NCBI RefSeq assembly: GCF_039541115.1
Contig: NZ_BAABFP010000004.1
Span: forward strand, 186,001-250,000
Length of the DNA stretch: 64,000 bases
Reading direction: 5' to 3'
Source of the DNA: Angustibacter luteus
Lineage (GTDB): Bacteria > Actinomycetota > Actinomycetes > Actinomycetales > Angustibacteraceae
The notes under the pieces are model-generated. The model had not been told where the DNA came from and ran no database searches. It worked only from the letters and a program-made list of their open reading frames with translations. Position 1 is the first letter of the stretch, and every line of letters begins with the position of its first letter. Position numbers and translations under genes: made by a program. Below, piece by piece: positions 50,661 through 64,000 of this stretch.

Positions 50661-51216
50661 ACTGCTCTCTCGTCACAGGGCAAATATCACGCTCTGTAGG
50701 GGTTTGCCCCGTTGTTGCTCCGTTCGAGTGGAGCACCAGGTGTCCGTTTCTTCCCGAATTGGTGGCCCTCCCTCCACAGGATGTGGGTAACTCTGTGGAT
50801 CTGTGGACATCGTGTGACGGGCGTCACAATCGGGGCAGGACGACGTGCGCCGCCGTCGTGGACGCAGCCGTGGATATCCACGGGACAACCTGTGGACGAC
50901 GTGACGTCGGCCGTGGGCAACGAGAAGTTGTCCACGGACGTCCACGGGACCCGGCGCCGCGTTCCACACCTCGTCAACAGGCTGAAAAGTGGGCTGACCT
51001 GCAAGAAGGGCCGTCTTCCACAGGATCCACAAGTGCTAAGACTATGAAGAGAGATACCTACTGGAGAGATCCTCCACGAACGACCACTGAGGGCCGATTC
51101 TGGGGACAACTCCACCGGAGCAGCCCTCGTGGTGTCGCGTGTCGGCTCTGCCGGATAGGGTCAGGCCACTCGTCGGTCGAGGTGACCGCAGCTGGGCAGG
51201 AGAGGGACGGTGGCCG
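50661..51216. other. oriC (dnaA-dnaN intergenic region)
   Basis: More than 12 DnaA-box-like 9-mers (e.g. TGTGGGTAA 50782, TGTGGACAT 50802, TGTGGACGA 50891, TTGTCCACG 50928, TCTTCCACA 51014, GGATCCACA 51023), then an AT-richer trio tract at 51037-51051. Confidence 0.93.
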
Positions 51217-52350
51217 GTGAAGTTCCGCGTGGAGCGTGACGTTCTCGCCGAGGCAGTGACGTGGGCGGCGCGTGGGCTGCCGACCCGCCCGCCCGTGCCG
51301 GTCCTGGCCGGGGTGCTGCTCGAGGCCAAGGACGACGGGACCCTGACGCTCTCGGCGTTCGACTACGAGGTCAGCGCACGGGTCACCGTGGCGGCCGAGG
51401 TCAGCGAGTCCGGGACGGTGCTGGTCTCCGGCCGGCTGCTCGCGGACATCTCGCGCAACCTGCCGGCCCGCCCGGTCGACGTCGTGACCCAGGACTCCAA
51501 GGTCTCGGTGACCTGTGGGTCGTCGCGGTTCACGCTGCTGACGATGCCCGTCGAGGACTACCCGACGCTGCCGAGCATGCCGCAGTCCGCCGGCACCGTG
51601 GCGGGCGACGTCTTCACCACCGCGGTCAGCCAGGTCACCACCGCGGCCGGCCGCGACGACACCCTGCCGATCCTGACCGGCGTCCGGGTCGAGATCGAGG
51701 GCTCGCGGATCACGATGCTGGCCACCGACCGGTACCGGCTGGCCATGCGCACGCTGGACTGGGCGCCGGAGGGAACCGACGCGTCCACCGTCGCTCTCGT
51801 GCCCGCCCGCACGCTGGCGGACACGGCCCGGGCGCTCGGTGCCAGTGGCACGGTCGAGCTCGCGCTCGGCCGCACCGGATCGGGCGACGGTCTGATCGGG
51901 TTCGAGGCTGGGGCCCGCCGGACGACGTCCCGGCTGCTCGACGGCGAGTACCCGAAGGTCGCGTCGATCTTCCCGACCACCAGCGACGCCCGCGTGGTGA
52001 TCGAGACCGCGGTGCTGGTCGAGGCCGTCAAGCGCGTCGCCCTGGTCGCTGAGCGCAACACCCCGGTGCGGCTGAAGTTCAGCGCCGGCGCCGTGGTGAT
52101 CGAGGCGGGCCAGGGTGACGACGCCCAGGCGAGCGAGCAGCTCGACGCCCTGCTCGACGGTGACGACATCGAGATCGCGTTCAACCCGCAGTACCTGCTC
52201 GACGGGCTCGGCGCGCTGCACCACCCGTACGCGCGGTTGGCGTTCACCCAGTCGACCAAGCCGGCTCTGCTCACGGGGCAGGCCGAGCCGGACGGCGAGT
52301 CGGACGACAGCTTCCAGTACGTGCTCATGCCTGTCCGGCTGGCCGGCTGA
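51217..52350 (+). CDS. dnaN: DNA polymerase III beta clamp
   Basis: KFRVERDVLAEAV, FDYEVS, DDTLPILTGV, ATDRYRLA, IAFNPQYLLDGL, YVLMPVR. Confidence 0.97.
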   Translation: MKFRVERDVLAEAVTWAARGLPTRPPVPVLAGVLLEAKDDGTLTLSAFDYEVSARVTVAAEVSESGTVLVSGRLLADISRNLPARPVDVVTQDSKVSVTCGSSRFTLLTMPVEDYPTLPSMPQSAGTVAGDVFTTAVSQVTTAAGRDDTLPILTGVRVEIEGSRITMLATDRYRLAMRTLDWAPEGTDASTVALVPARTLADTARALGASGTVELALGRTGSGDGLIGFEAGARRTTSRLLDGEYPKVASIFPTTSDARVVIETAVLVEAVKRVALVAERNTPVRLKFSAGAVVIEAGQGDDAQASEQLDALLDGDDIEIAFNPQYLLDGLGALHHPYARLAFTQSTKPALLTGQAEPDGESDDSFQYVLMPVRLAG

Positions 52351-61198: not shown

Positions 61199-62422
61199 TT
61201 AGGCGTTGGCGGGCACGTCGATCGACCTCGAGTAGATCAGGAAGTTGTCGATATCTTTCTTCCTGATCATGACCTTGCCCTTGCGGGGCTTGCCGTCAGG
61301 TTGCTTGAAGTCCGTCTGGAAGTCCCCGAGGACGATGCCGACGTTGGCCTGATTGACTTCGAGGATCTTCACGCGGACGAATCGCACCGCCTCCTTGAAC
61401 CTCCCAGCGTAGGAGAGTGGGTCATAATCGCTGCCTCGCCCGACGTGCCCGACCGACCGGCGCCAATCGTTCCACGCGATCGTCGACATGTTGGCGTTGT
61501 CCCGCCCGTGCCATGTCTCGTGCTCGTAGATGACGTACCAAAAGCGCCCCGTCTCCGTGAGGCAGCGGTAGAAGTCAGCCGCATCGTTGCCGGGTGAGTC
61601 GTTGACAGCAACATTGGAGGCCTTGAGGTCGCCGTAGTGCTCGAGCATGCCGTGATTGAGAAACCGAAGGTCATAGTCGTACTCGCCCTTGCGTTTCTCC
61701 TTCTGGACCTCGACGTGGTCGCGCAGGTTGTGCTCGGAAAGGAAGCGGCTCAGTCGGAACTCGACGTAGAAGCCCGCCCACTCGTTCTGGAATTTGTCCC
61801 GCCAGTTTGCGGCGTGCATCTCCTGCGCCGCCGCCAGACCCTCGATCCTCGCCCCGTTCAGAAGCACATCGCTAAACCGGTCGAACACTTCGATATGCGG
61901 GTTCCTCTCCTTGTAGCCCGCCTGTATGTACGTCGCGAACTGGTCAGCACGCACGCTGGTGAGCCGGTTGCCGCTCTTGTCCTCGCGCGAGAACTGCCCG
62001 ACCGTCTGCGCCTGGTACAGGTCGTTCGACGAAACGTGGGCGGAGGAATTGTTCGCCTTGCGGGTGACGTACGTGTCAGGGTCGAAGTCGACGAGGATCG
62101 TGACAGGTCCGTAGTGGTAGATCCCGACGAACCGCACGGTCAATCCGTCCTCTTCTGCTCGGCTGTAGACGTCCAGCCAGGTCTTCGGGATCTGGATCCG
62201 CTTTTTGTACGCCGGCCAGGGAACGCCCAGGTAGGTGACCTGCTTGCTCAGGATGATTTGACCCTCGATGGACACGACCCAGACACCGGCGTACTTCTGG
62301 AGCGTCGCGCTAGGTAGCGCCGCGAGCAGGAGCTCGGCTCGACCGCGGCTGGAGAGGGTGGTGTCGACATCCTGAAGCAGGGCGCCACTCGGCCCGATCT
62401 GATCGACAACGACGTTTCCCAC
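61199..62422 (-). CDS. Putative type II restriction endonuclease, AluI-like (PD-(D/E)xK fold)
   Basis: EWAGFYVE..YDYDL..YGDLKASN..SPGND nuclease-like core; N-terminal KQVTYLG..KKRIQIP; directly downstream of a C5 MTase; lower GC; resembles R.AluI from memory. Confidence 0.7.
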   Translation of the reverse strand: MGNVVVDQIGPSGALLQDVDTTLSSRGRAELLLAALPSATLQKYAGVWVVSIEGQIILSKQVTYLGVPWPAYKKRIQIPKTWLDVYSRAEEDGLTVRFVGIYHYGPVTILVDFDPDTYVTRKANNSSAHVSSNDLYQAQTVGQFSREDKSGNRLTSVRADQFATYIQAGYKERNPHIEVFDRFSDVLLNGARIEGLAAAQEMHAANWRDKFQNEWAGFYVEFRLSRFLSEHNLRDHVEVQKEKRKGEYDYDLRFLNHGMLEHYGDLKASNVAVNDSPGNDAADFYRCLTETGRFWYVIYEHETWHGRDNANMSTIAWNDWRRSVGHVGRGSDYDPLSYAGRFKEAVRFVRVKILEVNQANVGIVLGDFQTDFKQPDGKPRKGKVMIRKKDIDNFLIYSRSIDVPANA

Positions 62423-62553
62423 GCCACCATTGGTATCAGCCGGTGTCCCTAGGGTCGAGCGAGCGCAATGCCCTAGCCCATTCGGCGGATGGGGCCCAAA
62501 GGGCGCGTCTTGGCTGGCAGCCTCAGGGCACGGCTGCTCTGGGTGGGAGGGGC

Positions 62554-63963
62554 TTAGCCAACTGCCGCCTCCGGTGCGACAGCCCTGGCCTCGTGAGCTT
62601 TCGCGCCGTCGGCCAACGCATCGCCTGTCGGATTGAGAGGCGATGCGAGGACGGCGCGCACAAGGCGACGGGGCAAGTCGGACGCATCGCGCTCAACGTG
62701 TGTGCGGAAGACATGCCAGGCCGCCCCCACTGCGACACCATTACCTACCTGCTTGTACGACGCGGAATCCCGTTGGCCAGCGAAGGAGAGGCTTCGACTG
62801 AAACCCTGCAGGCGCGCGGCCTCGTGAGGAGTGAGCCGGCGGCGGCGGCTGCCCATGACCGAGGTTTGCGTAATGGCCACGAGAGCGGGAAGGTACGTGG
62901 GCGCCTTTGCGCGGATCCCAGAGGGGCGGAAGTGCATGACCGTTTCCCAGAGCGAGGCGGTGTCCTGGGCCTGCCACTCGAGCTTGCGACGGGAATCTGG
63001 GAACGAGGCGAAGGTGGGGTTCGCATGCTTCCATTCGCGGATCACGTCTCGGTGGTCGTCGTAGAAGCGGGCGTTCTTGATCAAGATCTGGGACTTCCAC
63101 CGGGGCAGTGCTTCCAACTCGAGCGGATCTAGGCCACGCTCCGGAATCCAAGCGTCGGCCCACAGGGGGAAGCCGGGGAGGCGGACGCCGCGGGCTGTCC
63201 ACATTCTCTGGACAAGGTCATCCCAGACGTTCACCCAAGCAGTCTCGTCAGCCGTGAGCTGGTACTTCTGGATGTTGTCGATATCGACGTCGTCATCCAG
63301 GATCCACTCGGCGTTCCAGTCCGCCGCGTTCCACCCATCGACAGGGCCGCGGACCACGGTCGGCGGAACGTCGACCTCCGCCAGCGCCCGTTGGGGGCCA
63401 ACGTAGGTGCCCAGGATGAAGACGCGGTCCCGGACTTGCGGTGTTCCTCCAAGAGAGGGGGGGAGAAAGTGCGGCGAGAACACAGACGGGGTCGACGACA
63501 CGCGGTAGCCGATCTCTCGCAACGTCTGGATGATCACGTCCCATTCGTGCGTGTGACGGGGACCCGCGATGTTCCGCACGTTCTCGAGCAGCACAACCGC
63601 CGGCGTTCGGTCCTCGAGTATGCGGGCGATGTTCCAGAAGAGCGTTCCTCGCGCCTCGTCCATACCACGCTGGCGCCCGGACTTCGAGAACGGCTGGCAC
63701 GGAAAGCCGGCCGCGAGCACGTCATGGGGCGGAACGTCGACCGGGCCGTCATCGGGAGTCGCCATGGTGATGTCGGTGTTGACGATGGGGCGCCTGGACG
63801 CCGGCAGCGGGTCCACCCAGTTGCGTAAGTAGGTCTGGCGCGCCTCGCGGTCGATCTCCGAGACGTAGACGCAGCGTCCGCCGGCGTGGTCGAGCATGGC
63901 GTGGAAGCCGCCGATGCCTGCGAAGAGATCTGCGTACTTGAACGCTGCAGAGTCCTTCGCCAT
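62554..63963 (-). CDS. DNA (cytosine-5) methyltransferase, M.AluI-like
   Basis: Motifs DLFAGIGG, GFPCQPFS, ENV, QVRDRVFI, RLQGF, KQVGNGV; long variable region with SRRKLEWQAQD..MHFRPSGIRAK..YLPALVAITQTS as recalled for M.AluI. Confidence 0.9.
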   Translation of the reverse strand: MAKDSAAFKYADLFAGIGGFHAMLDHAGGRCVYVSEIDREARQTYLRNWVDPLPASRRPIVNTDITMATPDDGPVDVPPHDVLAAGFPCQPFSKSGRQRGMDEARGTLFWNIARILEDRTPAVVLLENVRNIAGPRHTHEWDVIIQTLREIGYRVSSTPSVFSPHFLPPSLGGTPQVRDRVFILGTYVGPQRALAEVDVPPTVVRGPVDGWNAADWNAEWILDDDVDIDNIQKYQLTADETAWVNVWDDLVQRMWTARGVRLPGFPLWADAWIPERGLDPLELEALPRWKSQILIKNARFYDDHRDVIREWKHANPTFASFPDSRRKLEWQAQDTASLWETVMHFRPSGIRAKAPTYLPALVAITQTSVMGSRRRRLTPHEAARLQGFSRSLSFAGQRDSASYKQVGNGVAVGAAWHVFRTHVERDASDLPRRLVRAVLASPLNPTGDALADGAKAHEARAVAPEAAVG

Positions 63964-63970
63964 GCCAGCA

Positions 63971-63998
63971 AGCTTAGCTGAACCGACAGCTAAGTCAA
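63971..63998 (-). promoter_or_regulatory. Leaderless promoter of the methyltransferase containing three AGCT sites
   Basis: TTGACT (63998-63993), N16, TAAGCT (63976-63971), 7 nt, ATG; inverted repeat CTTAGCTG/CAGCTAAG. Confidence 0.7.
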
Positions 63999-64000
63999 GC

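Follow-up and report, generated by a model that had tools for sequence, protein, structure and literature searches.

A candidate nested promoter pair and two in-frame starts at a DNA cytosine methyltransferase gene of Angustibacter luteus

Two promoter-like elements and two in-frame starts precede the C5 cytosine methyltransferase (MTase) gene of a restriction-modification (R-M) cassette in Angustibacter luteus. We consider it somewhat probable that they work as a nested pair, in which an inner promoter carrying AGCT sites would be damped by methylation and yield a short enzyme, and an outer promoter of the PafBC type would be induced by DNA damage and yield a long one. Coordinates refer to the analyzed stretch of 64,000 nucleotides (the window); positions above 64000 continue this numbering past its end, and positions on contig C4 are obtained by adding 186000.

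The cassette and its inner promoter

The cassette consists of vsr, C5 methyltransferase and MTaX1 endonuclease genes, lies next to tRNA-Ala and tRNA-Ile downstream of gyrA, and has its control region at the end of the window. Its G+C content (about 61 to 68%) is lower than that of the host genome (72%). The genes and the elements of the inner promoter are as follows.

61199..62422, minus strand: candidate partner restriction endonuclease (REase), 407 amino acids, MTaX1 domain (PF20296; PADLOC REase_II PDLC03409, 6e-160)
62554..63963, minus strand: C5 cytosine methyltransferase, short form, 469 amino acids (PF00145), predicted to be AGCT specific
63971..63976, minus strand: inner -10 TAAGCT, holding AGCT copy 1, 7 nt ahead of the likely leaderless start (sequence and conservation)
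63976..63979, unstranded: AGCT copy 2, which shares the first T of the inner -10
63988..63991, unstranded: AGCT copy 3, in the spacer, adjoining the -35
63993..63998, minus strand: inner -35 TTGACT, whose first T belongs to AGCT copy 4 (sequence and conservation)
63998..64001, unstranded: AGCT copy 4, its final base just past the window end (genome sequence)
63973..63994, unstranded: 8-bp inverted repeat with a 6-nt gap
64586-64107, minus strand, beyond the window: vsr gene, which has a leaderless-type start of its own (TAAGTT-N7-GTG) without AGCT

The MTase is assigned to the C5 DNA methyltransferases by PF00145 together with FxGxG and PC motifs, and its best PADLOC profile is DruM2 (PDLC00034, 5e-254), followed by MTase_II (PDLC03220, 4e-126). 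The adjacency of MTase, REase, and Vsr genes marks a Type II R-M cassette with Vsr. A Druantia type II locus was rejected, the neighbors being vsr and REase_II and not the DruE helicase and other dru genes expected beside DruM. Elsewhere, the family pairs with DruE-like, Z1/DUF4420, and HNH partners, so that the partner nuclease differs between homologues: a DruE-like cluster touches 7 homologue loci, and the REase of the present cassette recurs at 11 of 78 genome loci. An MTase homologue is present in 38 of the 401 genomes searched within the order, and another, 88% identical, lies inside an unannotated 29-kb phage record (MT835579.1:21928-23277). No controller gene was seen within the cassette. 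A terminator hairpin between MTase and REase was unsupported (z = -0.62). An AT-rich stretch (TACCAAT, TACGAAT, or TAGAAAT) occurs 5 to 6 nt before the REase start, here at 62423-62445 and also at loci L001, L009, L011, and L014, which suggests that the REase may have a weak leaderless promoter of its own that lacks AGCT.

The original prediction, made from the window alone, described a minus-strand promoter, TTGACT-N16-TAAGCT-N7-ATG, before the MTase. The sequence agrees exactly, with the -35 at 63998-63993, a 16-nt spacer, the -10 at 63976-63971, and the ATG at 63963. The three AGCT sites reported there (63971, 63976, and 63988) are at those positions, the arms of the proposed inverted repeat, CTTAGCTG-N6-CAGCTAAG, are perfect (63994-63973), and a fourth AGCT, suspected to abut the -35, proved real once sequence past the window end was read (63998-64001). 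The count of four AGCT across the 2.8 kb occupied by the MTase and REase genes also holds (62331, 62596, 62981, and 63257). The 37 bp in question are upstream sequence as described, but not solely so, since they also serve as codons 16 to 27 of a longer in-frame open reading frame (ORF) that begins at 64044. A generic sigma-70 scan returned no promoter in the region at its threshold of 9/12, the inner promoter scoring 8 by our count. A search of RNA runs gave no RNA holder, which says nothing about expression.

Across the genome AGCT is frequent, at about 4.3 per kb. A 40-bp stretch with four copies is found at 5 places including this one; the other four look like coding-sequence runs. Homologue loci were gathered from genomes and metagenomes and thinned at 95% identity; those with no motif-I anchor, with fewer than 380 residues (truncated), or with less than 230 nt upstream were dropped, leaving 131; unpublished genomes contribute to none of the promoter counts. 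Of the 56 near homologues, 39 have at least three AGCT within 45 bp, and 35 have a -35-like site, which is found in 0 of the 68 far homologues. Among the 37 near loci with the inverted-repeat pattern, 19 have perfect arms and the rest match at 5 to 7 of 8 positions. A cruciform role for the repeat was discarded as unneeded, its symmetry coming mostly from two AGCT sites, each a palindrome.

An arrangement of this kind could also be an operator for the MTase protein itself or for another host protein, with binding repressing the promoter and methyl transfer being irrelevant. Such a role would fit the inverted repeat and the intervals of 10, 12, and 5 bp between the four sites, and there are known MTases whose binding represses (PMC3874152). 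However, those MTases carry an N-terminal helix-turn-helix, whereas Pfam gives PF00145 alone here; moreover, 21 of 51 far homologues have just one AGCT within 45 bp upstream, and the arm symmetry is imperfect in 18 of the 37 loci. We regard an operator as unlikely, although it is the best placed of the alternatives to methylation-damped nested promoters.

The outer promoter and the long form

The inner promoter had been presented as a single, self-regulated one. Its conservation is borne out, but that picture is incomplete, as a second promoter, of PafBC type, and an upstream start lie past the window end.

63964-64044, minus strand, ATG at 64044 beyond the window: 27-codon in-frame N-terminal extension containing an LxLxF peptide and giving a 496-amino-acid long form (homologue alignment)
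64059-64054, minus strand, beyond the window: Shine-Dalgarno-like AGAGGA before the long start (sequence)
64144-64123, minus strand, beyond the window, within the 3' end of vsr: outer promoter, with -26 TGTCGG, 10 nt, and a weak -10 TGGAGT; no AGCT (motif)

PafBC-dependent promoters follow the consensus tGTCgg(N10)tA(N3)T and have no -35 (PMC8635444). The outer promoter conforms in having a GTC element at -26 exactly 10 nt before the -10 and no -35; its TGGAGT departs from tAnnnT by missing the consensus A at the second position. Among the 56 near homologues, 36 have exact TGTCRG upstream, always at spacing 10 and with T at position 6 of the -10; a coding control window gave 1 of 56. In far homologues, TGTCRG sits exactly 10 nt before the leaderless -10 itself in 35 of 68 (0 to 3 at other spacings), and 24 of these 35 are hybrids of the form TGTCRG-N10-TAAGCT; the host background for TGTCRG at spacing 10 is 41 of 484. 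Far homologues thus often fuse both inputs into one promoter, and the close clade splits them between two.

The host is equipped for this type of control. Canonical TGTCRG-N10-TAnnnT occurs 44 times in its genome, versus 1 to 3 times at other spacings, and precedes repair and replication genes read by eye as recA, uvrA/B/C, polA, dnaE, mfd, radA, and dnaX, as well as dnaN, whose identity was confirmed. Tandem adjacent WYL genes (pafB/pafC-like) are present, one of which matches PafBC structures (E = 2e-66), so that the host encodes PafB and PafC candidates along with the motif at repair genes. The weak TG/CA class of -10, to which the outer promoter is similar, shows no genome-wide enrichment at spacing 10 (98, versus 9 to 95 at other spacings); it includes leaderless starts of genes read by eye as ligA, adnA, lhr, and recO.

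Several further occurrences of the motif were recorded in the host. The canonical promoter of dnaN (51140-51220) lies about 55 nt before its start, and the longer dnaN ORF start at 51139 is probably wrong. Another canonical motif, at about 40146 (G000:C4:226146, plus strand), precedes a thioredoxin-like gene (name read by eye). A canonical PafBC-type promoter precedes each of five related ORFs of 330 to 460 amino acids (contigs C2, C5, and C8); most of the five carry "RGLP" near residue 70, and they may be a damage-induced HNH/DUF222-like family. The host's second C5 methyltransferase (L193, G000:C8 near 605664) also follows a PafBC-type promoter whose -10 is weak, and its Shine-Dalgarno, AGAGGA, is similar.

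A PafBC-type motif precedes 11 of 26 other actinobacterial C5 MTases, several of which are related to each other, compared with 0 of 26 control windows and 66 of 2,816 host genes. This set excludes one unanchored locus and one unpublished genome, and one member (L213) is probably a distant member of the present family. The frequency of the motif in it suggests that a link between R-M and the damage response may be general in Actinomycetota.

For most close homologues the annotated length is 496 to 500 residues, not 469. Of the 42 homologues with at least 72% identity, 30 have an ATG or GTG exactly 81 nt upstream of the inner start, mostly behind a purine-rich, Shine-Dalgarno-like site; in 29 of these 30, codon 28 is retained as a second ATG. 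Codons 5 to 9 of the extension (L, P, L, x, F) vary synonymously, which argues for selection at the level of the protein. The codons that spell the -35 and AGCT sites, within 16 to 25, behave otherwise: codon 16 is CTT in 22/22 rows with Leu, GAC occupies 26/27 rows with Asp, and GCT (25/25, copy 3), TCA (25/25, copy 2), and GCT (27/27, copy 2) are fixed. These codons are AT-rich and rare at the G+C content of the host, so their fixation points to selection on the DNA. With a spacer of 7 nt, the TAA of the -10 falls out of frame, whereas in far homologues, most of which have a 6-nt spacer, it is an in-frame stop. An open upstream frame is weak evidence in itself, since it is also open in 71 of 104 host controls, as GC-rich DNA would have it.

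Outer promoter and Shine-Dalgarno-plus-start extension occur together at 39 of the 56 near loci, the extension without the promoter at 2, the promoter without the extension at 7, and neither at 8. Read-through from vsr was dropped as the source of the long form, the outer promoter being found also at loci that lack an upstream vsr. A strong hairpin in the leader was unsupported (z = -0.54); a short 5-pair stem in the long-form leader (L159:4066-4096, past the window end) is weakly conserved, with two-sided changes in 2 of 5 pairs.

Slightly less likely again than an operator is that the gene makes one product, either because the long ORF is real and the inner promoter a relic or because the upstream ATG is idle and the short start is served by both promoters. 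A single product would allow for the poor conservation of the extension sequence in several subclades and for the seven near loci at which the outer promoter stands without a scored extension. Against it, both starts are kept (ATG or GTG at -81 in 30/42, mostly with a Shine-Dalgarno-like site; ATG at codon 28 in 29/30), the inner start has no Shine-Dalgarno of its own, and inner elements are fixed at the DNA level while outer codons are held at the protein level.

The extension may be no more than a cost of having translation cross the inner promoter. A peptide of the form LxLx[LFW] occurs in frame in 30 of 72 homologues with a 7-nt spacer, against 3 and 2 in the other two frames and 4 of 104 host controls, which raised binding to the beta sliding clamp as a lead. 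The hexapeptide clamp-binding motif, Q-phi-x-L-x-L, counts Q among its key positions (bioRxiv 10.64898/2026.05.27.728225), but neither this form nor Q-phi-x-L-F is present in the MTase studied here, whose LxLxF lacks the Q. Strict Q forms were found in 4 of the 72 homologues (0 and 1 off frame). Some distant homologues have Q-form hexapeptides (QLSLPL in L195, QLSLNL in L238, and QLPLDL in L020), one of them identical to the Hda motif. Enrichment of the clamp motif was weak (7 of 110 proteins versus 3.3 in shuffles, most from one clade; 0 of 74 in a sister set), and independent-pair tests on the tree were nonsignificant. Many homologue extensions have no such motif. Prediction of a complex between extension residues 1 to 32 and host DnaN gave a score of 0.02 (mark, 0.32), no evidence either way. 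Clamp-like motifs at the C terminus, seen in few proteins, were set aside, as they showed no enrichment over shuffles. Clamp binding by the extension is therefore a doubtful lead; DNMT1, which binds PCNA (PMC9690074), is the parallel we propose for a clamp-docked long MTase.

Conservation of TAAGCT and the probable target of the enzyme

The original prediction had named conserved upstream AGCT in homologues as a check, and this is what the homologues have. TAAGCT is the -10, placed 5 to 8 nt before an in-frame ATG or GTG, at 95 of 131 MTase loci; 29 have another TANNNT, and 7 have none. It persists after stricter thinning (54 of 83 at 80% identity and 12 of 23 at 65%) and is scattered across the whole homologue tree. 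By comparison, TAAGCT is the -10 in 1 of the 26 other actinobacterial C5 MTases, of the same class, and in 0 of 484 leaderless-like host promoters (a set from which a GC3 filter removed the present MTase gene), 472 of which have no AGCT in the 45 bp upstream. Across the 4.16-Mb host genome, TAAGCT-N7-ATG occurs once, at the inner promoter, and TAGGCT-N7-ATG 17 times; the corresponding counts in 14 genomes of the family are 3 and 128.

The region resembling a target recognition domain (TRD) is alike in homologues with TAAGCT and in the 36 of 131 without it, so that a feedback site appears to be common but dispensable, and a change of specificity in the latter group is unsupported. One clade (L119, L125, L126, L129, L131, and L134) has lost TAAGCT entirely and kept the TRD-like region. 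The variants TAAGTT and TAAACT occur in two groups of loci (L025, L059, L074, and L241; L082, L152, and L239); such variants would result if a methylated C of AGCT were deaminated, on one strand or the other. In two MTases from outside this family, L215 (24% identical to the present MTase) and L214, the -10 of a PafBC-type promoter includes AGCT (TAAGCT and CAAGCT), and their targets may contain AGCT.

That AGCT is the target was approached through site avoidance, scored by synonymous-codon shuffling for 16 palindromes. Across 70 MTase genes, AGCT was seen 207 times and expected 277 times (0.75), the lowest z of the 16, although four AT-rich palindromes have lower observed/expected ratios; the relatedness of the loci overstates these z values. 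Host control genes are at 1.05 and 1.10 of expectation. Among partner genes, 11 MTaX1 REases hold 25 AGCT versus 38 expected (0.65) and 4 DruE-like genes hold 21 versus 37 (0.56), and there is no avoidance in vsr (1.03), Z1 (0.95), or DUF4420 (0.89) genes. The avoidance of AGCT is modest and supports it indirectly; we consider AGCT, methylated as AG-m5C-T, very probably the target.

The present MTase presumably resembles M.AluI. The name AluI is absent from the homologue lists, cluster look-ups, plasmids, phages, PDB, and Atlas, the PDB matches of the MTase being generic. M.AluI is likewise a C5 MTase with a long variable region, and its target is the AG-m5C-T predicted here (PMC11879396); it differs in that the best profile of the present enzyme is Druantia DruM2. 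M.AluI prefers GG-AGCT-CC contexts (PMC11879396), and three of the four promoter AGCT sites have AT-rich flanks. It is speculation that such sites are methylated late and act as a timer.

If TAAGCT were an inherited -10 variant with no regulatory role, the enzyme could have another target. The loci are related by descent, and L214 and L215, of another family, also have AGCT in the -10, both of which would suit simple inheritance. This is nonetheless quite improbable: TAAGCT persists between proteins that are 52 to 60% identical and whose flanking DNA is otherwise unrelated, it is nearly absent from other promoters, and as many as three or four further AGCT sites occur in the close clade.

Mechanism, precedents, and significance

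From the elements, their conservation and co-occurrence, and the PafBC equipment of the host, we infer the following sequence of events for the nested promoters. On entry into a naive host, the unmethylated, near-consensus inner promoter would produce a leaderless mRNA and a burst of short enzyme. Methylation of the four AGCT in and beside both hexamers, or bound enzyme, would then lower the inner promoter. DNA damage, including cuts by the cassette's own nuclease, would allow PafBC to activate the AGCT-free outer promoter, whose transcript would read through the damped inner promoter and encode the enzyme with 27 additional residues. This long form would remethylate repair tracts, so that protection would rise where repair synthesis leaves unmethylated sites, at a time when the inner promoter is off. 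To call the inner promoter a switch may overstate its damping, since the effect in the AhdI system is only about 50% in vitro.

The opposite sign of control, in which methylation activates the inner promoter to give positive feedback and a bistable epigenetic switch, is hardly credible: a multi-site array could behave in a switch-like manner, but protection would be delayed on entering a new host, AhdI and CfrBI act negatively on their MTase promoters in the sources consulted, and both inner hexamers are already near consensus.

Feedback through a cognate site is known from AhdI, CfrBI, and LlaDII. In AhdI, the site overlaps the -10 of the MTase promoter, and methylation autoregulates it negatively, with a drop of about half in vitro (PMC2275141); in the present promoter, conserved AGCT, the predicted cognate site, overlaps both the inner -10 and the inner -35. 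AhdI has one site, adenine methylation (inferred in PMC2275141), and a C protein, whereas the present locus has four sites at both hexamers, a C5 enzyme, a likely leaderless start, and no controller seen, and adds a damage-type second promoter with a second start. CfrBI and LlaDII also use a cognate site in the MTase promoter (PMC12707154; bioRxiv 10.64898/2025.12.04.692298). CfrBI resembles the present system in being controller independent and in having its site within inverted repeats, but it has one site and divergent, competing promoters, whereas the cassette genes here are co-oriented and the partner nuclease varies. Described PafBC promoters share the spacing and the lack of a -35; the present one differs from them in preceding an R-M methyltransferase and in its weak -10, and those of far homologues in having AGCT inside the -10.

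No paper was found on autoregulation of an AluI-type MTase, on R-M MTases with two starts, or on clamp-binding bacterial MTases. Wiring of feedback together with a damage promoter was likewise found in no paper, by search terms that did not include PafBC. Term searches within a few papers for PafBC showed no link to R-M MTases; published regulon tables might already include a methyltransferase. A still broader scheme, in which R-M MTases in Actinobacteria are wired into the PafBC regulon, with a free, self-silencing "establishment" form and a damage-induced, clamp-docked "maintenance" form, is if anything a shade less probable than clamp binding itself.

A 2025 review describes promoter-methylation control of R-M systems as rarely used and, in the portion consulted, names three cases (PMC12707154). 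If the nested promoters work as proposed, this MTase family would be a widespread further case, serving several nuclease and Druantia-like partners. The same review describes restriction alleviation after damage for Type I systems, by ClpXP proteolysis or failed nuclease assembly (PMC12707154), which likewise keeps the cell's own nuclease off the chromosome while repair proceeds but acts without MTase induction; with a PafBC-type MTase promoter, Type II systems would have restriction alleviation in a transcriptional form. Finally, a conserved promoter hexamer offers a possible means of guessing the target of an MTase from its own promoter.
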